DNA of 12,346 bases. It comes from Candidatus Edwardsbacteria bacterium. GTDB taxonomy: Bacteria; Edwardsbacteria; AC1; JBFLXN01. Below the pieces are notes generated by a model, which made no database searches, had not been told where the DNA came from, and saw nothing but the letters and a program-made list of their open reading frames with translations. How positions within the stretch are numbered: position 1 is the stretch's first letter; the number at the start of each line of letters is the position of its first letter. Both the position numbers and the translations under genes were made by a program. This document shows, piece after piece, positions 1 to 12,021 of this stretch. Location: NCBI GenBank assembly GCA_040755715.1, contig JBFLXN010000014.1, positions 1 to 12,346 of the forward strand, read 5' to 3'.

Positions 1-331
1 CGAAATCCTCGGTTTTTACTAAAATTGCACCTCTTTGGATAAGCTTCGATATAATTTCATAATTTTTGCTGCCACCTTTCAGTCCCTCCTCAAGTATCTT
101 CTGGCCCATAGCCCCATCTGCAACCATTCCATCCTGATACACCTTAAAGTTAGCCACCTCTAATTTCTCAAAATATCTGGCTATTGAATCCCAGAAGCCA
201 GAGATAGTTTCTCTATGTTGCTTCCAAAACTTCTCCCCGAAACCTGCAATACCTCTTTTGTCCACCTGCCTAGCAATACTTCCAAGATCGGCACTCATGT
301 GGATGATTGGAACATAGATTAATTTTCGCAT
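1..331 (-). CDS. hypothetical protein, N-terminal 110 codons (gene continues past the left edge)
   Basis: This ORF is absent from the supplied track because it has no stop inside the window. Manual minus-strand translation from the ATG at 331-329 gives MRKLIYVPIIHMSADLGSIARQVDKRGIAGFGEKFWKQHRETISGFWDSIARYFEKLEVANFKVYQDGMVADGAMGQKILEEGLKGGSKNYEIISKLIQRGAILVKTEDF, open to position 1. The ATG overlaps the TAA of the upstream ORF (TAATG). No family recognised. Confidence 0.5.
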   Translation of the reverse strand, partial: MRKLIYVPIIHMSADLGSIARQVDKRGIAGFGEKFWKQHRETISGFWDSIARYFEKLEVANFKVYQDGMVADGAMGQKILEEGLKGGSKNYEIISKLIQRGAILVKTEDF

Positions 332-597
332 TATTTTCCTAATCCTTTAGCTTTTATTAAAAGTTCTGCTGTCTGTTTACGCAGGGTAGATATGGTTCTG
401 CAATTTTTACAATCCTCGTTTTTCTCATCATATTTTTCACAAGACAAAAGCATCTCCACCTCTTTCTTTAAGTGACTCGCCCTTTCGGCTTTATCAGTTA
501 CTGCCTTTGCCTCGTTGATATCGCGGGTCAATTCTTTAATGGTCCATTCCCTTTTTAGAAATATAGGGCACTTTATCTCTGGTTTTGGTTCTGCCAT
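331..597 (-). CDS. small hypothetical protein (88 aa, 4 Cys, charged and helical-looking)
   Basis: Track ORF. Its ATG at 597-595 overlaps the upstream TGA by 1 nt (TGATG), and its TAA overlaps the next ATG (TAATG), so it is translationally coupled on both sides. No family recognised. Confidence 0.55.
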   Translation of the reverse strand: MAEPKPEIKCPIFLKREWTIKELTRDINEAKAVTDKAERASHLKKEVEMLLSCEKYDEKNEDCKNCRTISTLRKQTAELLIKAKGLGK

Positions 598-1502
598 CAG
601 CGTTTAACCTCTGGGATCTGTTTTTCGCTTCCTAACTTCTGCAATCTGACCTCCAATATATTATTATGGTATCTTCTCACAATTCCTTCGCTGTCAACTT
701 TTGCTGGAAGAGAAACCTCTTCATAGTAGTTAGATTCGGGAGTTTTACAAGAGACGGTAAGTCTATCTTCATCTACCCCTAATAATATATCCTCTTCCTG
801 GGCACCTTTTAATTCCATAATGATGTTTAGATGGTCGCCTTCATCAAAGATATCCAATAACAATTCCTCTTTATCTTTTTTTAATTTATCCCCTCCGATA
901 ATCCACCAGCTAAACATAACTTTCTTTCCTGTGGATTCATCAATCTTACATCTTTGGAATACTAAAACCGGAAAACCTATCAGCTCTTGAGCCGTTGGAT
1001 TAATAATATTTCTTACCCTGTGGAGAATATCCATATGATTTGGCGCATTATAGCTGTGAGCCAATTCGTCAATGGTGGCATGTCTATTTTGCCAGACAAA
1101 AAGAAGTATATTTTGGCTCTCAGGATCTAACTCTTTGGCAATCTTATCTATTCCCTCTTGATTTATTTCCAATAGGCTTCTTTCAAATATCTTATTTTTC
1201 CACATCTCTACATCTTTTACCATAATCCAGGCCTTTGAAGCAGTTGCACCGCCTTGATTTCTATAAGAGATACAAAGGGCGTCCTTACTTCTTAATGTAA
1301 AACCCCTCTGTTGAATGCTGATTCCTTTTATATTTTCTAAGGACGTCTGGAATATAATCCTCGCCGGCTGCCAAAGAAAAAGCCTCAGGTTAGTCAGGTA
1401 CAGATGCCCTGGTTTCCAGCCGCTGCGTAGATTATCTTTGTAAAAACCCGGATCGCTTAGTATAACCTCTTCATTCGCTTTTAATTCAGGCTTATTTTTC
1501 AT
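597..1502 (-). CDS. PH/GRAM-like domain plus possible winged-helix module plus C-terminal alpha-crystallin (Hsp20) domain fusion protein
   Basis: The track ORF is 597-1598, and the codon at 1598 is TTG. The N-terminal motif GWKPGHLYLTNLRLFLWQ resembles bacterial PH/GRAM (G-x-LY-x-T-x-x-RL). The C-terminus, LLLDIFDEGDHLNIIMELKGAQEEDILLGVDEDRLTVS...VRRYHNNILEVRLQK, reads as an alpha-crystallin domain. The start is uncertain. ATG 1502 gives an 11-nt overlap with the upstream ORF. ATG 1565 is preceded by GGAAAG. TTG 1598 is the longest option. Confidence 0.8.
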   Translation of the reverse strand: MKNKPELKANEEVILSDPGFYKDNLRSGWKPGHLYLTNLRLFLWQPARIIFQTSLENIKGISIQQRGFTLRSKDALCISYRNQGGATASKAWIMVKDVEMWKNKIFERSLLEINQEGIDKIAKELDPESQNILLFVWQNRHATIDELAHSYNAPNHMDILHRVRNIINPTAQELIGFPVLVFQRCKIDESTGKKVMFSWWIIGGDKLKKDKEELLLDIFDEGDHLNIIMELKGAQEEDILLGVDEDRLTVSCKTPESNYYEEVSLPAKVDSEGIVRRYHNNILEVRLQKLGSEKQIPEVKR

Positions 1503-1767
1503 CTTTTCTGTAGTGTTTATAAGTAAAACCTGGATGTCTTGCACCACCGGGTTTGTTATCTTCATATTCTTTCCGTTTATATTTTGACCTTTTATCAAAT
1601 TCTACCCCTGTAGAATGTATTATCTGGGCATCTTCACCAGTTGAGTATTTAACCGAATATCTTCTTCTCTTTTTTGCCCACTCATCCCAGTCCATAGCTG
1701 TGGAGTGTCTCACCTTTGTGCCGCGGCCAGTAGAATACCCTGAAGTTTTAGGTGTCTTGGATTTCAT
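1492..1767 (-). CDS. small basic protein with four [HY]-S-T-[GA] repeats (hypothetical)
   Basis: ATG at 1767, preceded by AAGGGATAA (SD-like). The ORF fills what would otherwise be a ~180-nt gap in a compact operon. The motif occurs four times as GYSTG, HSTA, KYSTG and HSTG. Its codons differ mostly at wobble positions (CAT/TAC/CAC/TAT; TCT/TCA/TCC/TCT; ACA/ACT/ACA/ACT; GGG/GGT/GCT/GGC), which argues for selection at the protein level. Confidence 0.55.
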   Translation of the reverse strand: MKSKTPKTSGYSTGRGTKVRHSTAMDWDEWAKKRRRYSVKYSTGEDAQIIHSTGVEFDKRSKYKRKEYEDNKPGGARHPGFTYKHYRKDEK

Positions 1768-1782
1768 TTATCCCTTTTTTTC

Positions 1783-2355
1783 CTATTTCCATTTCCAATT
1801 ACAGGTCTTCCAATCATCAGGCACAGAAGGATGGTCTAAAATTCCTGTTTTCCCGCCTGCGTTATCAGTCTCCTTGACTACGTCCTCCTCGTCGACTTTG
1901 GGACTTTGCGGGGCAGGGGACGGAGCTTCCTCACATGGTTCATCTTGAGAGGAATCGAGGGCTTCAGCTGCTTCTTCCTCTTCTACGACCTCTTCGAAGA
2001 CTATCCCGCATTTCGGACAAACTGTTGTGTTTTCTTTTACGGCTGTGCCACAGCTCACACATTCATATCCTTCTATCTCTTCTACTTCTTTTTTGGTCTC
2101 TTCAGTGCCCATACTACCTCCAAGTTCTTTCTCGCCCTCGCCTTCGCCCTTAACCTGTTCTTCTCCCAAGGAAGTAATCCTGTATAAAGCAAACCTACCG
2201 GGCGAAAGCCTTTCTATATACCCTTTCTCCCACAATTTTTTGCATATATCATAGGCATAATTTATTGTAACCCTTAAGTTCCCGGCAATAGTTACGGTAT
2301 TTCCCTGTTTAATTTCCTTAAATTTTTCTAAAATCTTTTTCTCGTTAGGGGTCGT
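1783..2355 (-). CDS. winged-helix DNA-binding domain plus acidic linker plus zinc ribbon protein (putative regulator); non-canonical or damaged start
   Basis: The track ORF 1783-2235 begins at an internal TTG. The frame stays open upstream to the TAA at 2361-2359. That upstream part encodes the rest of a complete wHTH: TPNEKKILEKFKEIKQGNTVTIAGNLRVTINYAYDICKKLWEKGYIERLSPGRFALYRITSLGEE. A perfect SD, AAGGAGGT, lies at 2368-2361, with ACG 6 nt downstream at 2355-2353. There is no ATG, GTG or TTG between 2358 and 2236. The zinc ribbon is CVSCG-x11-CPKCG. Confidence 0.6.
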   Translation of the reverse strand, partial: TTPNEKKILEKFKEIKQGNTVTIAGNLRVTINYAYDICKKLWEKGYIERLSPGRFALYRITSLGEEQVKGEGEGEKELGGSMGTEETKKEVEEIEGYECVSCGTAVKENTTVCPKCGIVFEEVVEEEEAAEALDSSQDEPCEEAPSPAPQSPKVDEEDVVKETDNAGGKTGILDHPSVPDDWKTCNWKWK

Positions 2356-2405: not shown

Positions 2406-2858
2406 TCAATATTCGATAGATACAGATTTCCACTTCTTTTCGGCTCTACTCCCTTTGCCTTGGCGCCCTACTTTTTCTTGAAGAGTAGTCAATCTATTGG
2501 GTCCACGATTACGAATTACCAACCACGACCCACGAGTAGGTCCAGATAATTTAATCTCGGCTCGAGAGTGAGGTCCGAGTTTTGTCTCCTCTAACACATC
2601 ACCTTCTAAGGTAAGCCTTCCATTTTCATCTATCCTGCCTTGACTTTCCATCATAGTAACTTCGAACTGTGAAAGGCGCGGGACCATGCTTTGCAGATGA
2701 TAAACAATCAAATATGGCCACCGCATGCTTCCTTTAATCCTTACTACTTTAATTCCCACTGGGCTTGCGAGATTTAATCCCGCTTCCCTTCGAATATTCG
2801 AAGGAATAGATAATCTACCCTCTTCATCAATTTCGCTAAATCCTTTTAACAGCGGCAT
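2406..2858 (-). CDS. tandem AbrB/SpoVT/MraZ-like (swapped-hairpin) domain protein, putative DNA-binding
   Basis: There are two copies of the D-x-x-GR-L/I signature. The first is [21 protein letters not shown] and the second is [21 protein letters not shown]. The ATG at 2858 overlaps the Hsp70 gene end by 23 nt. Confidence 0.7.
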
Positions 2859-4602
2859 CTTTTGTTTCTATCTTTAGATTTCTCTTTATCCGTTTAAACG
2901 CATTATAGACAATCTCAACCAGCTTTCTTAATTCATCAATTTTTACCCTGGTCTCTTTATATTCACCCTTGGATAAAGTTGTCTTTATTGCCAGGATTAG
3001 TTTCTCTATTTTTTCTACATCTGACCTATCTATTAGACCCTCTCCTTCTTCCAGAACCATCTCTGCTGCTTGTATCATACTTTCCGCTCGAATGCCCATT
3101 TGAATCTCTTCTTTTCGCTTTTGGTCTTCCTTGGCATGAATTCGGGCATCTTCTATCATCTCGTTAATCTGGTCCTTGGTCAGCCGGGAAGAAGAACTGA
3201 TCTGGATACTTTTTTCATTATCGGTATGTAAATCCAAGGCTCTGACTTGTAAAATCCCATTGGCATCTATATGGAATGTCACCTCAATCTGAGCTTCACC
3301 CCTTCGACCGGGTGGAATATCAGTAAGCTCAAACTTACCCAGACTTATATTATCGAAGCTCAGGAATCTCTCTCCCTGCAAGACATGGATATCGACCTGA
3401 GTCTGGTTATCTTTAGCTGTCGTAAATATCTGACTGCTGGATGTAGGAATGGTGGTATTTCTTTCTATGATCTTAGCAAATATCCCTCCCTCAGTCTCAA
3501 TTCCTAAAGAAAGGGGAGTAACGTCTAACAATACCACATCTTTTATTTCCCCAATCAAGATATTGGCTTGAATTGCTGCGCCAAGAGCCACTACCTCATC
3601 CGGATTTATATCCTTATAAGGTTCTTTGCCCAGAAGCTCTCGAGCGAGCTTTTGCACAGCAGGCATTCTGGTGGAGCCTCCTACCAAAACTACCCTGTCT
3701 ATCTGGCCGGGGTTGAGCTTTGCATCAGAAAGGACCTGTTTAGTAGGCTCTATCATCTTCTCTAATAAATCCCTGGTTAGCTCTTCAAACTGCTCTCTAC
3801 TCATAGTCAGATGCAGATCCATATCTTGTATGAGAAATGGGATTCTGATATCTGCAAACCTTTTTGTGGAAAGTTCTTTTTTTGCCTTCTCTGAAGCCTC
3901 TTTCAACCGCTGTAAAGCCACCCTATTTCTTCTTACATCCACTCCATGCAACTTCTGAAAATTATCAGCCAAATAATCCATTATCCTCTGGTCCCAATCA
4001 TCTCCGCCAAGATGTGTATTTCCCCCTACTGCCTTCACCTCAAACACGCCATTGCCCAACTCTAAAATAGATACATCGAAAGTGCCTCCACCCAAATCCC
4101 ATATTAGAATATAGTGTATATCCTGCTTGTGTAAGCCGTAGGCCAGGGAAGCAGCAGTAGGTTCATTTATAATCCGCATTACCTCTAATCCGGCTAAGGC
4201 GCCTGCCTCCATAGTCGCCTGGCGCTGGTTATCATTAAAATATGCAGGAACTGTAATTACTGCTTTCTCTATTTTCTCGCCCAAATAATCTTGCGCATCT
4301 TCCTTGACCTTACGAAGGATTAAGGCCGAAATCTCTTGGGGGGTAAATTTTCTCTCGTCAATCTCTACCCCATAATCAGTGCCCATCCGACGTTTAATAG
4401 ATGCAATGGTACGTTCTGGATTTGCAACTGCCTGGGTTCTGGCAAGATTGCCTATCAGCTGCCTCCCTCCATCGGCAAAGGCAACCACTGAAGGAGTAAG
4501 CCTTCCGCCTTCAGCATTGGGTATAATCTCAGGCCTCCCATTGTTTATAAAGGCGGCTACTGAAAAGGTAGTGCCTAAATCTATTCCTATTACCTTACTC
4601 AT
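2836..4602 (-). CDS. dnaK: Hsp70/DnaK-family chaperone paralog (588 aa)
   Basis: Hsp70 motifs present: [56 protein letters not shown] substrate-binding domain ([13 protein letters not shown]) and a helical lid are also present. The true start is the ATG at 4602-4600 ([12 protein letters not shown]), in an ATGA overlap with the upstream stop. The 34-aa extension in the track lies inside the upstream gene. Confidence 0.93.
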
Positions 4603-5672
4603 TTGGCTACCTGGGCTATTTTCTTCTTTAACCGTGGGCTGACCCAGCCGCAGTTTACGCAACCCTTTTCTAATAGCTCTAAGGCGTTTGCCTTTTTTCC
4701 GCATTGAGGGCAGGCTTCTGTTCTTTCTCTAAATGATATGATTCGGGTAAGCGCCCTCTCCCACTCATACATTCCCTCTCCTGAAAAAGAGGCAACCTTT
4801 CTTTGAGAACCACCTTCACCCAGCCCTTGCGCGCAAGAGCTGGGTTCATATATTACGTCAAAGACCTTTTTCTTCTTTAATACCGGGCTCAAATTCCTTA
4901 CATCTATAGCAGAACCTAATATCTTTTCTGAAGGGACTTCAAAAGCCAATCTCTTTTCAAAATCATACCACCAGCATAATCTCTTATTTGTTATATACAG
5001 ATGACCGGGCTTCCAGATACCATCTGATGAGGCCATATGCCAGGCCTTGCCCTTGTGAGTAATCGTTTCTCCTTCTGTCAGGAAATCTAATGTCTCTTCC
5101 TCATATTCGGGTAGAATAAGGTTTTCATCAATTATAAGTCCGCCTAACTTTATCGCCTCTTTTATAGACTCACCTAATTTATCTATCTCCACAGACCGCA
5201 GACGCGCTAATCTATCATCCTTAAGAATAAGTAAGAGCGTATCTTCTTGTATCAAGAGCCCCTTTATCTCATCTAAAGAGGTTTGAAACATCACTTCATT
5301 AAGCTCTTGATTCATGAGCAGCAGTCTTTTATCAGTTAAATAAATCTGCCCCGGTCTCCAACTAACATAGATTCCTTTGGCATAAAAAAAAGAGCCCAAC
5401 ATCTTAAGTTTAAGCTCTTCTCCCTGGATTAAAGAAATCTCTTTTTTAGCTCTATTATCTTTTTCCCAGGCGCGAATCTTCTCATCCCATGCCTTCATCA
5501 TGCCATACTCGAGCATAGTCTCCATGCCGGCCAGGGCGGCTCTTAAATTAACACCGATTAAAGGGATGCCCGCCACAGAGATGATAATGTCAGCGTTGAT
5601 CACCAACCCCTTATCCAGGACCCTATCCAATAAATCAACCAATGTGACCCGTGCATCTCTGGTTGGCTCCAT
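4599..5672 (-). CDS. GvpA/J/M-family (GvpM-like) N-terminal domain fused to two PH/GRAM-like domains and a C-terminal zinc ribbon
   Basis: The N-terminus [49 protein letters not shown] matches the gas-vesicle structural core (LxxVxDRxLDKGxV...). Two PH-like motifs follow, [15 protein letters not shown] and [16 protein letters not shown]. The C-terminus is [25 protein letters not shown]. The ATG at 5672 is preceded by AAGGAG. Confidence 0.85.
4815..4848. repeat. second copy of the 26-bp palindrome (one mismatch), flanked by direct ttca, inside the GvpM-like fusion CDS
   Basis: cccagcccttgcgcgcaagagctggg lies at 4819-4844, with ttca at 4815-4818 and 4845-4848. Element plus one flank is 30 nt, or 10 codons, so it is in frame. 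It encodes [10 protein letters not shown]. Confidence 0.7.
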
Positions 5673-6522: not shown

Positions 6523-6836
6523 TTGGCTGTCTCCTTTATTTTTTCCCATCTCGTGGGATTAGCTATTTTATCTATAACATCGTTGACTATATTATCTAAA
6601 CCATCTCTCACTGATTGAACTGCCTCACCAACCCCTTGTTCCTCTTTTATATGCTCTATTGCGACGTCGAGTTCCTTAAGCGCTCTACCCAGACGTTCTA
6701 TCTCTTCTTCGTTTAGGCTTCCACCCTCCATTCGCTTTACCGCCTGAAGTTTAAGGGCATCTCTGATTATTTCAACCAAGGCAAGCACAAGGCCTAAAAC
6801 ACCGCTTTTAAGATTATCTTCATTGATATCTATCAT
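6519..6836 (-). CDS. gvpK: gas vesicle protein GvpK
   Basis: GLVLALVEIIRDALKLQAVKRMEGGSLNEEEIERLGRAL matches the GvpK core as I remember it. The ATG forms an ATGA overlap with the upstream stop. Confidence 0.88.
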   Translation of the reverse strand: MIDINEDNLKSGVLGLVLALVEIIRDALKLQAVKRMEGGSLNEEEIERLGRALKELDVAIEHIKEEQGVGEAVQSVRDGLDNIVNDVIDKIANPTRWEKIKETAK

Positions 6837-7420
6837 TTTTCTATTTTTACTTCTAAAATCCCATTCTTGTATGTTTTTTCTAGTTTTCCTTTAGATTCGC
6901 AGGGTAGTTTTAATTGCTGATGGTACTTGCGATCAGGAATATCTACTGATATTGCAAGGCTGTCTTTGACTAAATCAATTTTTATATCCTTTTCTTCAAT
7001 GCCTGGTATTTCAGCAATCACTTTAATATGATCTTCCTCATCAAAGATATCCGCTGGCCGCTCTTGAGGTGTTGGAGGGGGTGAGGGTTTTACTTCTGGT
7101 CTCTGTTTAGCAAAAGGTTTTCCTCTAAAGGCCCTTCCTCTTATGCCCGGAGGGATGCCGCCGGGGATACCCGAAGGCCTTCCTTCAGCTCTTTTCAAAG
7201 GGGCTTCTTTTATCTTACGCTCCACCTCTTTATCAACCTCCTTAAGCCTCTCTTTGAAAGCCGGGGATTTCTCCAGGCCTTTAATTAATCCCCCTAATCC
7301 GGGAATTACCTTGCCCAGACCTTTAAGTATTCCTCCTGCTACACTTTCAGATTCTTTTTCTCCCGCCTCGGGCGGGACATCCTCTGGTCGCTTTTTGTCT
7401 TTATCTTCTTTACCGGTCAT
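6833..7420 (-). CDS. Hsp20/alpha-crystallin domain protein with a long Gly/Pro-rich N-terminal region
   Basis: The C-terminus reads as an alpha-crystallin domain: DIFDEEDHIKVIAEIPGIEEKDIKIDLVKDSLAISVD...LEKTYKNGILEVKIEK. The N-terminal region carries G-rich repeats (GGILKGLGKVIPGLGGLIKGLEK, GIPGGIPPGIRG). The ATG at 7420 is preceded by AAAGGTG. Confidence 0.85.
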   Translation of the reverse strand: MTGKEDKDKKRPEDVPPEAGEKESESVAGGILKGLGKVIPGLGGLIKGLEKSPAFKERLKEVDKEVERKIKEAPLKRAEGRPSGIPGGIPPGIRGRAFRGKPFAKQRPEVKPSPPPTPQERPADIFDEEDHIKVIAEIPGIEEKDIKIDLVKDSLAISVDIPDRKYHQQLKLPCESKGKLEKTYKNGILEVKIEK

Positions 7421-7468: not shown

Positions 7469-7819
7469 TCATTCTGCCTTTATATCTTTTGCCTTGGCGC
7501 TTACCCAGCCACACCAGGGACAGCCCTCATCAAGTAATTCTTCTGCCAGAACTTTTTTGCCGCACTGTGGACAAAGTTCTTTACCCTTCATGGCTTCTTT
7601 CCAGGCTTCTGTTTCCACATTAGTCCCTGATGGAAACTCAAGGCCATACTTTGCTGCTGTCTCAAAAGAAGCCAGGGCTGCCCTTATCTTAATTCCCAAA
7701 AGCTCTACTCCGGCAACAGATATGGCGATATCCGCATTAATCACCAGGCCTTTGTCTAAAACCCGGTCTATGACATCAACCAAAGTAACACTTGCATCTT
7801 TTGTCGCTTCTATTGCCAT
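7469..7819 (-). CDS. gvpJ: gas vesicle structural protein, GvpA/J/M family (GvpJ-like), with a C-terminal zinc ribbon
   Basis: [53 protein letters not shown] is the gas-vesicle core, and it looks J-like from memory of the haloarchaeal GvpJ sequence. The C-terminus is CPQCGKKVLAEELLDEGCPWCGWVS. The ATG at 7819 is preceded by AAGGAGG with an 8-nt spacer. Confidence 0.88.
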   Translation of the reverse strand: MAIEATKDASVTLVDVIDRVLDKGLVINADIAISVAGVELLGIKIRAALASFETAAKYGLEFPSGTNVETEAWKEAMKGKELCPQCGKKVLAEELLDEGCPWCGWVSAKAKDIKAE

Positions 7820-8930: not shown

Positions 8931-10895
8931 TTATCCATATATTTCCTTAGAAAAATCCTTTAATCGGTCAATACCTTTGATCTGATAAGGGAAAAGCGGC
9001 AGCTGACCAATTTGATATTGCGAAGACCTTTCCCTCTCTATTTCCTGGATAATCTTAATCTGCTCACCTCTTTTTGACTCGCAAAAATTACATCTAGTTT
9101 TCGGAAGAATCATATTAACCAGAATATAATGAGAGGGGATGTTAAGTCGCTTAAGGTTCTCAAGGAGGCCGTCCATCTCACTCTTGCCCATAGCCTCTGG
9201 AATACCTACAACCACAAATTGACACCTCGCCGGATCTGTGAGAATCTCCTGTATTTTTCTCACCTTCTTAGAAAACTCTATCATCTCTTCAGCCTGTTTG
9301 GCCAATCGTACTATCCCCTTATATTTTATAAGTAATTTAAATATTGCATTTAGCCACTCCCTGGCAACCTGAGGCATCTCTAGAAACCGCAATAGGTGTC
9401 CTGTAGCTGCTGAATCTAAGATATATATATCAAATTTTCCTCCATCTATAAATTCCACCACCTTAGCTAAAGCCATAATCTCATCCAAACCGGGAGGAGT
9501 AAGTGAGATAAGTTCCTCTAAAATCTCCCTATCGAACTTAACATCCACTCCACCTCCGATAAATTTACTAAATACCTCGCTTATTTGGTCTTTATAATCC
9601 TTTTTAAAATTCTCAAGCAACTTCAAAGCATCTATCTCCAGGGCAAATAGATTATTGGGGACAGTCTCCTTCGGGGACAGTCCCCCTATCTGAGTGAGAT
9701 TATCTCCAATAGATAGACCAAAACTATCGGATAGCGAATGGGCAGGGTCGGTAGAAAAGACTAAGACTTTTTTAGAGGGGTATTTTTTGGCCATACTAAG
9801 TGCAGTGGCTGAAGCTATGGATGTTTTACCCACCCCACCTTTTCCCCCAAATATATATAATATAATGCCTTTCTCTATTAATTGAGGCAATTTAATAATA
9901 GAGAAAATCTTAGACTTGAAATCAAAAGGTTTCTTTCCAATGGGAAGGCGATGTGGCTTCTCTTCAAATAAAACCTGGGCATATTCCTTTAGTCGATCCA
10001 TCCCTCTGATTTGATATGGAAATATCGGTATCTGATGAAGTTCGAGATTTGCGAATTTTTGCCTGATTATATCTAATTCTTTCTTTTGTTCTTTCTCTTC
10101 CTTAGAACAAAAGGGACACCTGTTTTGACTACTTTTAATTTGATTGACGATAATAGATTTCACTGAAATTCCATATCCTTTTAATATCGCCAACAACCTT
10201 TCTGTCTCTTCTATAGCCAAGGTCTCGGGTTTAGTGACAGGTATAAATTCTGTTGAATCGCGGTTCTTTAGTAACCGACTTACTCTATCCACGTCGCTTT
10301 TCACCATCTCTAAAAATTCATCAGCGTCGTCTTTTTTGTATTTGCCAGCAAAATGGCTGGCTAAAAATCTATGCTTAGATTGCATCAAATCTAAAACTTC
10401 GACCCACTTTTTCATCTGAAGGGGTAAACCTAAAAGCCTTATGGTATGTCCTGTAGGTGCGGTGTCCAAGATGATTAAATCGTATTTCTCTTCTCTTAAG
10501 ATATTAGCTATTTTTATAACCGCCATTATCTCATCTAACCCTGGAATAGAAAGGGAAAAGAAATTCTCTATATCTTGCCTGTCGAAATAAGTTCCTCTCT
10601 CAACGATCTTTTTCATCACCAAATCATATTTCTTTTTAAAAAGAGAGGCCTCTTCCTCAGCTTTTATTTCTAAAGCCCAAAGATTGTTTAAATCTTTTAT
10701 GGGTGTAATGGTATTACCAACAGTATAGCCCAAACTATCACCCACTGAATGAGCAGGGTCACAGGATACAATCAAAATCCTCTGCTTGGGATAATGTTGG
10801 GCTAAATAAAGGCCAGTAGCAGTCGCTGATGTAGTTTTTCCGCAACCCCCCTTTCCACCAAAGATTATTAGACGCCGCTTCTCGCTGATTTTCAT
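8931..10895 (-). CDS. tandem-fused ArsA/Get3 (TRC40)-family ATPase (654 aa, two homologous halves)
   Basis: Half 1 has GGKGGCGKTT, CDPAHSVGDSLG, DTAPTGHTIRLLGLP and a CPFC motif. Half 2 has GGKGGVGKTS, TDPAHSLSDSFG, DSAATGHLLRFLEMP and a CNFC motif. Each half ends in a matching tail: IPIFPYQIRGMDRLKEY in half 1 and LPLFPYQIKGIDRLKDF in half 2. ATG at 10895. Confidence 0.92.
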   Translation of the reverse strand: MKISEKRRLIIFGGKGGCGKTTSATATGLYLAQHYPKQRILIVSCDPAHSVGDSLGYTVGNTITPIKDLNNLWALEIKAEEEASLFKKKYDLVMKKIVERGTYFDRQDIENFFSLSIPGLDEIMAVIKIANILREEKYDLIILDTAPTGHTIRLLGLPLQMKKWVEVLDLMQSKHRFLASHFAGKYKKDDADEFLEMVKSDVDRVSRLLKNRDSTEFIPVTKPETLAIEETERLLAILKGYGISVKSIIVNQIKSSQNRCPFCSKEEKEQKKELDIIRQKFANLELHQIPIFPYQIRGMDRLKEYAQVLFEEKPHRLPIGKKPFDFKSKIFSIIKLPQLIEKGIILYIFGGKGGVGKTSIASATALSMAKKYPSKKVLVFSTDPAHSLSDSFGLSIGDNLTQIGGLSPKETVPNNLFALEIDALKLLENFKKDYKDQISEVFSKFIGGGVDVKFDREILEELISLTPPGLDEIMALAKVVEFIDGGKFDIYILDSAATGHLLRFLEMPQVAREWLNAIFKLLIKYKGIVRLAKQAEEMIEFSKKVRKIQEILTDPARCQFVVVGIPEAMGKSEMDGLLENLKRLNIPSHYILVNMILPKTRCNFCESKRGEQIKIIQEIERERSSQYQIGQLPLFPYQIKGIDRLKDFSKEIYG

Positions 10896-11443: not shown

Positions 11444-11728
11444 TCACCTCCTCTCCTCTTTGTATTTCCTGATTGCCTCTAATCTTTCCAGGATTTTTCC
11501 TTCTTTCTTTTTATATTCCTCTTCGTTCACCTCGCCCATCTCAAAGCGCATCTGAAGTTCTAGCAACTCTTCCTGCACTTTAGACTCATCGGTCACCTCA
11601 GTCTCGGCTGTCTCCTTTAGTTTATTTCCGATCCATACCACCCCCTTTATAGGCAACAAAAAAGGCAATAAAATATCGGTTAATCCAAAACCCGATCCTT
11701 TAGAACCACTCTCAGGCTTTTCCTTCAC
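11444..11728 (-). CDS. gvpG: gas vesicle protein GvpG
   Basis: LTDILLPFLLPIKGVVWIGNKLKETAETEVTDESKVQEELLELQMRFEMGEVNEEEYKKKEGKILERLEAIRK fits the GvpG pattern. The present start is the GTG at 11728-11726, in a GTGA overlap created by the inserted element. See the findings for details. Confidence 0.85.
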   Translation of the reverse strand: MKEKPESGSKGSGFGLTDILLPFLLPIKGVVWIGNKLKETAETEVTDESKVQEELLELQMRFEMGEVNEEEYKKKEGKILERLEAIRKYKEERR

Positions 11729-12020
11729 CCCGCCCTTCCTTTCCTTGCAATGCCAAGTCTAGATTTTAATCTTGCCAAACCACTTCCGAACTTCTTCAAG
11801 CTTTTTTCCCTTTCAAATGCCACATCTTTAGATCTATAGGCCTCAAAATATATTAACTCCACTGGTAACATCTTTCTAGTTGAATATATCTTTCCTTGCT
11901 TATGCTCCATTAACCTTTTTTTCAAGTTATTCGTACATCCTATATAAATCCAGTCTTTAACTTTACTACTGAGTAAATATATATAATGCCAATTAGGCTT
12001 TTTAGGAAGGGCGGGGTTCA
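11724..12020 (-). mobile_element. putative miniature autonomous element: TTCA | 12-bp TIR | GIY-YIG ORF | 12-bp TIR | TTCA
   Basis: The plus strand has ccccgcccttcc at 11728-11739 and its perfect reverse complement ggaagggcgggg at 12005-12016. Direct ttca copies flank these at 11724-11727 and 12017-12020. The ORF start (xTG) and stop (TGA) both fall within the flanking TGAA copies. Confidence 0.5.
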
Positions 12021-12021
12021 C
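11725..12021 (-). CDS. small GIY-YIG nuclease family protein (98 aa)
   Basis: WHYIYLLSSKVKDWIYIGCTNNLKKRLMEHKQG...ELIYFEAY...AFEREKSLKK carries the GIY/YIG motifs, the conserved Arg, the Glu and the RE-x-x-x-K signature. Start is the GTG at 12021 and stop is the TGA at 11727-11725. The ORF is bounded by 12-bp inverted repeats. Confidence 0.85.
   Translation of the reverse strand: MNPALPKKPNWHYIYLLSSKVKDWIYIGCTNNLKKRLMEHKQGKIYSTRKMLPVELIYFEAYRSKDVAFEREKSLKKFGSGLARLKSRLGIARKGRAG

Follow-up and report, generated by a model that had tools for sequence, protein, structure and literature searches.

The window, by which we mean the whole 12.3-kb stretch of DNA that was analysed, is one operon-like gvp cluster with all of its genes on the minus strand. 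The order begins with the end of a GvpL/F gene, a small GIY-YIG-like ORF, GvpG, a Zn-ribbon protein and GvpO, and continues with a two-domain ArsA-type ATPase, a second GvpG and a DnaJ-type CXXCXGXG zinc-finger protein. A GvpA-like protein with a C-terminal Zn ribbon, an sHsp, GvpK and GvpL/F come next, followed by a GvpJ/M-like PH fusion, Hsp70/DnaK, an AbrB/MraZ-like protein and an acidic Zn-ribbon protein. The last part consists of the gene under study, encoding a protein with a PH-like module, a winged-helix-like domain (wH) and an alpha-crystallin domain (ACD), and two more translationally coupled genes. The features on which the analysis draws are as follows.

597..1502, minus strand: most likely CDS of the PH-wH-ACD protein (301 aa, ATG start)
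1173..1502, minus strand: its PH-like (GRAM/GLUE-like) module, H-type, strongly basic; residues 1-110
888..1172, minus strand: its winged-helix-like domain (the weaker call), acidic; residues 111-205
627..863, minus strand: its short ACD, without a C-terminal IxI motif; residues 214-292
331..597, minus strand: p88, an 88-aa protein with four cysteines
2836..4602, minus strand: Hsp70/DnaK, 588 aa from ATG 4602 (HSP70, E 1e-214)
4599-5672, minus strand: the fusion, with a GvpJ/M-like domain, two PH modules and a Zn ribbon
5133-5453 (Ja) and 4725-5087 (Jb), minus strand: the two PH modules of the fusion
6833-7420, minus strand: stand-alone gvp-cluster sHsp with a low-complexity N-terminal region (ACD at 6836-7066)
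8931..10895, minus strand: two-domain ArsA/Get3-like ATPase (ArsA_ATPase, E 1.7e-139)

The N-terminal domain of the fusion matched Pfam Gas_vesicle (E 4.5e-17) and the NCBIfam GvpM-like model (E 3.9e-28). More than 1000 homologues of the fusion were found, many with precomputed Pfam GRAM, GLUE or bPH_3 matches on record, and it is presumed to be a client or partner of the PH-wH-ACD protein. One of the homologues, encoded in a MAG labelled Candidatus Edwardsbacteria, shows 100% identity to the fusion. The DnaK ORF overlaps the stop codon of the fusion by 4 nt, and p88 is translationally coupled to the PH-wH-ACD gene by a 1-nt overlap. Besides the AbrB/MraZ-like protein, another wH-like protein with a Zn ribbon is encoded in the window, and the 280-nt gap upstream of the PH-wH-ACD gene contains three copies of a 10-nt motif. 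Promoter and terminator scans of the window did not rise above shuffled background, Rfam matched nothing within it, and NCBIfam models cover neither p88 nor the GvpK/GvpO-like ORFs. GvpN is absent from the gvp cluster stretches seen here.

The PH-wH-ACD gene had initially been annotated at 597-1598. This span represents the maximal reading frame counted from a TTG codon, but the TTG start is not conserved. The homologues (n=141, mostly 290-312 aa in length) have their N-terminus at MKNKPEL, and neither the extension from TTG-1598 nor that from ATG-1565 (an alternative start giving 322 aa and chosen by one gene caller) is conserved among them. The TTG-1598 start was therefore rejected in favor of ATG-1502, making 597-1502 the most likely CDS.

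An AlphaFold2 model of the protein, built from 42 homologues with a mean pLDDT of 81.7, contains seven strands and a C-terminal helix at residues 13-108, four helices and a beta-hairpin at residues 115-201, and a beta-sandwich at residues 216-289. Combined with profile matches, the model bears out the three-domain architecture (PH-like, wH-like and ACD) that had been proposed from the sequence. The first domain has the fold of the PH superfamily, a seven-stranded bent beta-sandwich closed by a C-terminal alpha-helix, with E11, W29, K30, L36, T37, R40 and W101 as invariant residues and a conserved basic patch formed by R26, K30 and R40; the module has a net charge of about +8. Assignment of residues ~115-201 as a winged-helix-like domain is a weaker call, with an alpha-alpha-beta-alpha-alpha-beta-beta topology compared to alpha1-beta1-alpha2-alpha3-beta2-beta3 in a canonical wHTH. 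A basic DNA-binding surface was not found in this domain, its family mean net charge being -4.4 (-1.7 for the core), and DNA binding is therefore unlikely. The ACD beta-sandwich is recognisable by both sequence and fold. Searching PDB sequences with the family profile retrieved the ACD of S. solfataricus Hsp20.1 (4rzk) with an E of 2e-20, the NCBIfam archaeal Hsp20 model matched with an E of 1.5e-19, and Pfam HSP20 exceeded its cut-off when the ACD was scanned by itself. The same PDB sequence search returned ACD relatives only, with no match for the PH or wH parts, for which NCBIfam has no model either, and Foldseek against the PDB found no solved structure with this three-domain arrangement (TMq <=0.26).

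Pairs of motifs had been quoted in the initial annotation as parallels between this protein and its two neighbors, the GvpJ/M-like fusion and the stand-alone sHsp. They are present in the sequence and lie inside significant alignments, with similarity far above chance. By BLASTP, residues 2-74 aligned with residues 76-152 of the fusion (39% identity, E 1e-10) and residues 29-80 with residues 220-275 (39% identity, E 3e-8), the latter alignment including WKPGHLYLTN. The proposed ACD similarity to the neighboring sHsp was likewise upheld, with residues 212-289 aligning with its residues 119-195 (38% identity, E 2e-16) in a stretch that includes DIFDEGDHLNIIMELKG and DIFDEEDHIKVIAEIPG, respectively. 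Profile-profile comparison by hhalign established homology of the N-terminal module to each of the two PH modules in the fusion (PH1, 99.3% probability, E 1.1e-20; PH2, 98.7%, E 1.4e-16), which are in turn homologous to each other (E 4.5e-16).

The profile of this module was run with HMMER against 1.84 billion representative proteins at a cut-off of E <=1e-3, and only 207 clusters matched. Domain architectures were assigned with custom domain HMMs to the best 150 of these 207 matches, with the following counts.

PH only (for the most part fragments or stand-alone proteins of ~100-160 aa): 67 of the best 150
PH+wH+ACD: 37 of the best 150
GvpA-like+PH+PH, with or without a Zn ribbon: 17 of the best 150
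PH+wH: 8 of the best 150
PH+ACD: 8 of the best 150
GvpA-like+PH: 4 of the best 150

A few further mixes of the same domains occurred, and no partner domain beyond GvpA-like, wH, ACD and Zn ribbon was recognised among these best 150 of 207. Most of the longer PH-only matches carry low-complexity tails. In the Pfam scan of the window proteins, every PH-type match (GLUE, GRAM, pICln, CheF) stayed below its cut-off, the best being Vps36 GLUE with an E of 1e-3 (19.5 bits vs a cut-off of 24.1), although one stand-alone PH relative barely passed CheF-arch (25.4 vs a cut-off of 25). Mutual closest relationship of the three PH modules, which had been named as a test of their kinship, was indeed observed: E values among them run from 1e-16 to 1e-20, against ~1e-3 for the best Pfam family, and we accept the result because of the 207-cluster profile search and the confinement of partner domains to gvp-type architectures. 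Judged by these searches, the module belongs to a small family that is nearly confined to gas-vesicle proteins. An ESCRT-II Vps36-like reading (GLUE plus wH) was considered and set aside, because Vps36 GLUE fits the structure no better than other PH domains do, and the evidence for the wH is weak.

A neighbor-joining tree of 165 PH modules drawn from gvp loci resolved four clean clades.

Clade H: PH adjoining wH, including the second PH of double-PH variants
Clade S: stand-alone PH proteins and the first PH of double-PH variants
Clade Ja: the first PH of GvpJ/M-like proteins, single-PH forms included
Clade Jb: the second PH on GvpJ/M-like proteins

Placement of the first PH of double-PH variants in clade S means that a stand-alone PH gene was fused on to give these variants. 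The four groups are old paralogous clades, and the motif common to them (WKPG-LYLTN-RL) is the family-wide core. Thus, the view that one PH module is shared by the fusion and the PH-wH-ACD protein holds as homology but not as a recent copy. Mean net charge also separates the clades, being about +8 for H and +5 to +9 for S compared to about 0 for Ja/Jb. By contrast with the initial annotation, which had taken the shared module to suggest a common docking target, a single docking target is not implied for four old clades, and the contrast between basic H and S and neutral J weighs against one. The strong charge difference between H-type and J-type modules likewise makes a PH-PH equivalence doubtful.

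Genomes were scanned at one genome per species. From the 151 relatives so obtained, 80 loci were retained, and ORFs at these loci were labelled with the window proteins and domain HMMs. More than 12 bacterial phyla have the family at gvp clusters, and loci from several archaeal lineages were also found. Bacterial lineages include Nitrospirota/Thermodesulfovibrionales, Aminicenantes, Acidobacteria, Actinomycetota, Chloroflexota, Clostridia, Planctomycetota (Scalindua, Pirellulales), Verrucomicrobiota, Bipolaricaulia, Desulfobacterota, Atribacterota and Bacteroidota, with Desulfoluna spongiiphila AA1 and D. butyratoxydans MSL71 as cultured members of the Desulfobacterota. In Bathyarchaeia, Micrarchaeota and Methanophagales the match is limited to residues ~110-290, the archaeal clusters encoding a PH-less wH+ACD form whose gene lies between GvpA-Zn and GvpK, the position taken by the stand-alone sHsp in the window.

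Co-location with gvpA/J/K/L/F/G/O genes is conserved across lineages, with a recurrent order of GvpK, GvpL/F, GvpJ-PH2, DnaK and the PH-wH-ACD gene, then ArsA or p88 plus p110. At least one gvp gene was present in 34 of the 47 PH+wH+ACD loci and at least three in 29, many of the remaining contigs being short. DnaK was present in 39/47 of these loci and immediately upstream of the PH-wH-ACD gene in 30/47, ArsA directly adjoined it in 17/47, and p88 lay directly downstream in 8/47. p88 recurs in this downstream position in several phyla and is also part of a minimal module at locus L004. Seven loci carry a PH+PH+wH+ACD variant directly after the GvpJ fusion, with DnaK nearby in one of the seven. 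On an Actinomycetota contig, ArsA, GvpJ-PH2, DnaK, the PH-wH-ACD gene and p88 stand alone between tuf/rpmG and secE/nusG, an arrangement that argues for the five being one functional unit.

Compared with known sHsps (PF00011), the protein is alike in its ACD, for which the Hsp20.1 ACD of S. solfataricus (4rzk) is the closest solved structure. However, sHsps have a flexible, variable substrate-binding N-terminal region where this protein has 205 residues of folded, conserved PH and wH. Canonical sHsps build large oligomers through a C-terminal I/V-x-I/V motif that this family lacks ([IV]x[IV] occurs, by chance, in the C-terminal tails of 3 of 42 members, with a median tail of 8 aa), and in the family profile alignment it is also without the beta6 loop that Hsp16.5-type sHsps use for oligomerisation. 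Lacking an IxI motif, a beta6 loop and a flexible N-terminal arm, the protein falls outside the canonical oligomeric sHsps, and unlike sHsps at large it is encoded inside gvp clusters.

A functional parallel is haloarchaeal GvpH (PF05455), an accessory Hsp20-like protein of gvp clusters whose role may be the same as that proposed below. GvpH has neither a PH nor a wH domain, whereas the present protein has both; the GvpH profile PF05455 did not match it, and the neighboring sHsp gave a faint match (E 0.096, 13.2 bits vs a cut-off of 22). As cited in PMC7688916, Tavlaridou 2014 describes haloarchaeal GvpH as non-essential, binding GvpM and preventing its aggregation. Within the PH-like superfamily, which includes GRAM (PF02893), Vps36 GLUE (PF11605), pICln/Voldacs (PF03517), bPH_3 (PF14470) and CheF-arch (PF04283), the module shares the PH fold but belongs to its own narrow 207-cluster family outside the curated Pfam PH-type families. 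The GvpJ/M-like fusion and the PH-wH-ACD protein have homologous PH modules, one operon and equal taxonomic spread, but the former carries clades Ja/Jb with GvpA-like and Zn-ribbon partners, and the latter clade H with wH and ACD.

The presence of ArsA and Hsp20 genes within gvp clusters was pointed out in 2010 (PMC2963123). Our literature search returned no description of a PH-wH-ACD architecture, no paper on PH-like modules in gas-vesicle proteins, and no paper showing gas vesicles in organisms with this cluster type, and NCBI annotates members of the family merely as Hsp20/alpha-crystallin family protein. What would be new, as far as the literature search goes, is this architecture together with a gvp-specific PH family, accessory Hsp20-like proteins in gvp clusters being known.

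The architecture of the protein and its distribution are the solid part of these results. As for function, we consider it about an even call that the protein is an ACD chaperone or adaptor dedicated to the gvp cluster and acting, with the adjacent Hsp70, on aggregation-prone GvpJ/M-type proteins; its holdase role we infer. It would then be an sHsp-type protein in which a basic PH and an acidic wH have replaced the disordered N-terminal arm. The ACD would hold or cap hydrophobic, aggregation-prone GvpA-family proteins awaiting assembly, above all the GvpJ/M-PH fusion, and the PH module would bring the protein to its partner, for which the candidates are the fusion with its PH modules, some other acidic Gvp surface, or the chaperones. 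From there the client might be taken over or released by the neighboring Hsp70, the ArsA/Get3-like ATPase and the DnaJ-type zinc-finger protein. Substrate handover from sHsp to Hsp70 is established chaperone biology. Counting for such a dedicated chaperone are the architecture and folds, the homology of its PH to those of the fusion, the narrowness of this gvp-specific PH family, the steady adjacency to Hsp70 and to a PH-bearing GvpJ/M-like protein, the translational coupling by gene overlaps, and the GvpH-GvpM precedent. Counting against it are the lack of an IxI motif, a beta6 loop and a substrate-binding flexible arm, the difference in charge between H-type and J-type PH modules, and the presence of DnaK in just one of seven double-PH loci. 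More tentatively, and with doubt outweighing confidence, the H, S, Ja and Jb modules could form a gas-vesicle-specific targeting code that links private chaperones, which may comprise the Hsp70, the ACD protein, the ArsA/Get3-like ATPase and the J-type zinc finger, physically to GvpJ/M-type nucleators, with a complex held by chaperones and bridged by PH modules starting amyloid-like shell assembly.

The absence of canonical sHsp oligomerisation elements raises the possibility that the protein instead serves the nucleation complex as a scaffold or structural adaptor, its PH modules binding mutually or to GvpL/F-type hubs and its ACD working as a simple protein-binding beta-sandwich like CS/p23. 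CS domains of Sgt1 and PIH1D1 match the modelled ACD almost as closely as sHsps, several paralogous PH modules (stand-alone PH proteins included) occur together in one cluster, and haloarchaeal accessory Gvp proteins form one complex (PMC7688916). However, the ACD sequence is clearly of the sHsp type (E 2e-20 to 4rzk and 1.5e-19 to archaeal Hsp20), and constant Hsp70 adjacency suits chaperone work better, leaving a scaffold as an unlikely alternative, albeit the one that survives best.

Some ArsA/Get3 proteins carry an Hsp20-like domain in cis (Pfam ArsA_HSP20). The present protein could accordingly be imagined as a co-factor of the ArsA/Get3-like ATPase that supplies the ACD in trans, with its PH recruiting hydrophobic Gvp clients for ATP-dependent delivery. 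Direct adjacency of ArsA in 17/47 loci fits such a co-factor, as do stand-alone S-type PH genes adjoining ArsA at loci L021, L024, L026 and L028, weak ArsA_HSP20 matches within the family and the coevolution of ArsA with gvp genes (PMC2963123). These ArsA_HSP20 matches stay below threshold, though, the archaeal wH+ACD clusters are mostly without ArsA (present in 2/23), and DnaK adjoins the gene more often than ArsA does, so that we hold this role to be distinctly improbable.

Sub-threshold matches to HTH_DeoR, HTH_20 and HTH_24 and the thrice-repeated 10-nt motif in the 280-nt upstream gap would accord with a gvp transcription regulator whose wH binds DNA, whose PH senses an unassembled Gvp protein or ligand and whose ACD oligomerises. 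The family-wide acidity of the wH (-4.4, core -1.7) runs counter to it, and an AbrB/MraZ-like protein and a further wH-like Zn-ribbon protein are already encoded in the cluster, making a regulator very unlikely. Finally, a general stress sHsp lying near gvp genes by accident, as the plain Hsp20/alpha-crystallin name given by NCBI might suggest, is scarcely credible in view of synteny with gvp genes in more than 12 phyla and of a PH module confined to gvp-type architectures.

The protein family bears on the question of how GvpA-family proteins, which are very hydrophobic, stay soluble and reach the growing gas vesicle. The cluster type is widespread, extending over Nitrospirota, Desulfobacterota, Chloroflexota, Atribacterota, Acidobacteriota, Actinomycetota, Planctomycetota and others, with the PH-less form in Bathyarchaeia, and such clusters encode their own Hsp70, ACD proteins and ArsA/Get3-like ATPase, together with a private PH carried by both a shell-family protein and a chaperone. 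The family adds a well-delimited member to the prokaryotic PH-like families, yields direct and testable interaction hypotheses, and may aid heterologous expression of gas vesicles for acoustic reporters. If the PH modules do act as a targeting code, they would represent a previously undescribed assembly pathway for a large and mostly uncultured class of gvp clusters.

A near-identical C-terminal Zn-ribbon motif is carried by the GvpA-like protein (7469-7819, minus strand) and by the GvpJ/M-PH fusion (4599-4700, minus strand), and this ribbon is a second module common to the shell-family proteins of the window's gvp cluster. At other loci the Zn ribbon is also joined to PH modules alone, as PH+PH+ZnR and PH+ZnR. 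The window has just two GvpA-type genes, one for the Zn-ribbon form and the other for the PH fusion; neither a short canonical GvpA gene nor a GvpN (AAA+) gene was seen within this stretch, the cluster running on past its right end.

Two genes lie immediately 3' of the gene for the PH-wH-ACD protein (597-1502, minus strand), and both were found again 3' of its relatives in several phyla:
331-597, minus strand: 88-aa protein (p88) with four cysteines, translationally coupled to the PH-wH-ACD gene, 1-nt overlap with its neighbour
2-331, minus strand: second gene coupled to the PH-wH-ACD gene, 1-nt overlap, homologues of about 225-240 aa
A search for a family match to p88 returned none, and the sole match of the second product was a weak one, TraB/PrgY/GumN-like. 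In an Actinomycetota contig (locus L004, JBFMAG010000009.1, 1698-7223), a minimal set of five genes encodes a single-domain ArsA, the GvpJ-PH2 fusion, DnaK, the PH-wH-ACD protein and a 92-aa p88 homologue, flanked by tuf/rpmG and secE/nusG with nothing else in between; no gvp genes besides the set's own were found on this 12.3-kb contig.

Three further features of the window are on the minus strand:
1607-1616, 1637-1646 and 1727-1736, minus strand: ATTCTACWGG, two copies exact and one with 2 mismatches
1783-2235, minus strand: very acidic Zn-ribbon protein, net charge -21
11725-12021, minus strand: 98-aa ORF with weak GIY-YIG nuclease-type matches
All three ATTCTACWGG copies fall within the 280-nt gap 5' of the PH-wH-ACD gene. 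With 2 mismatches allowed, the whole window holds 35 matches against a shuffle mean of 21, a count that exceeds every shuffle. The AbrB/MraZ-like or wH proteins of the cluster may use the motif as an operator. The N-terminus of the acidic protein resembles a winged-helix wing (GYIERLSPGRFALYRITSLGE); because its homologues are 185-206 aa long, the real start of the gene may lie upstream of the called TTG. The 98-aa ORF, which weakly matches group I intron endonuclease and the UvrC N-terminus, sits between GvpL/F and GvpG, overlaps the GvpG start and has a homologue at only one other locus (L028).

Double-PH variants of about 410-430 aa with PH+PH+wH+ACD architecture, their added PH belonging to the stand-alone (S) type, are present in Atribacterota, Desulfobacterium N47, an Actinomycetota MAG and Mariniphaga (L037, L034, L036, L039, L041, L055 and L038); their genes lie directly 3' of the GvpJ fusion, usually without a nearby DnaK. 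In the gvp clusters of Bathyarchaeia (L066, L070-L072, L075-L079 and L081), the same-cluster GvpJ-like protein has a single PH module, the sHsp position is occupied by a wH+ACD protein without PH, and DnaK is encoded within the cluster. An Hsp70 gene within archaeal gvp clusters is unusual.
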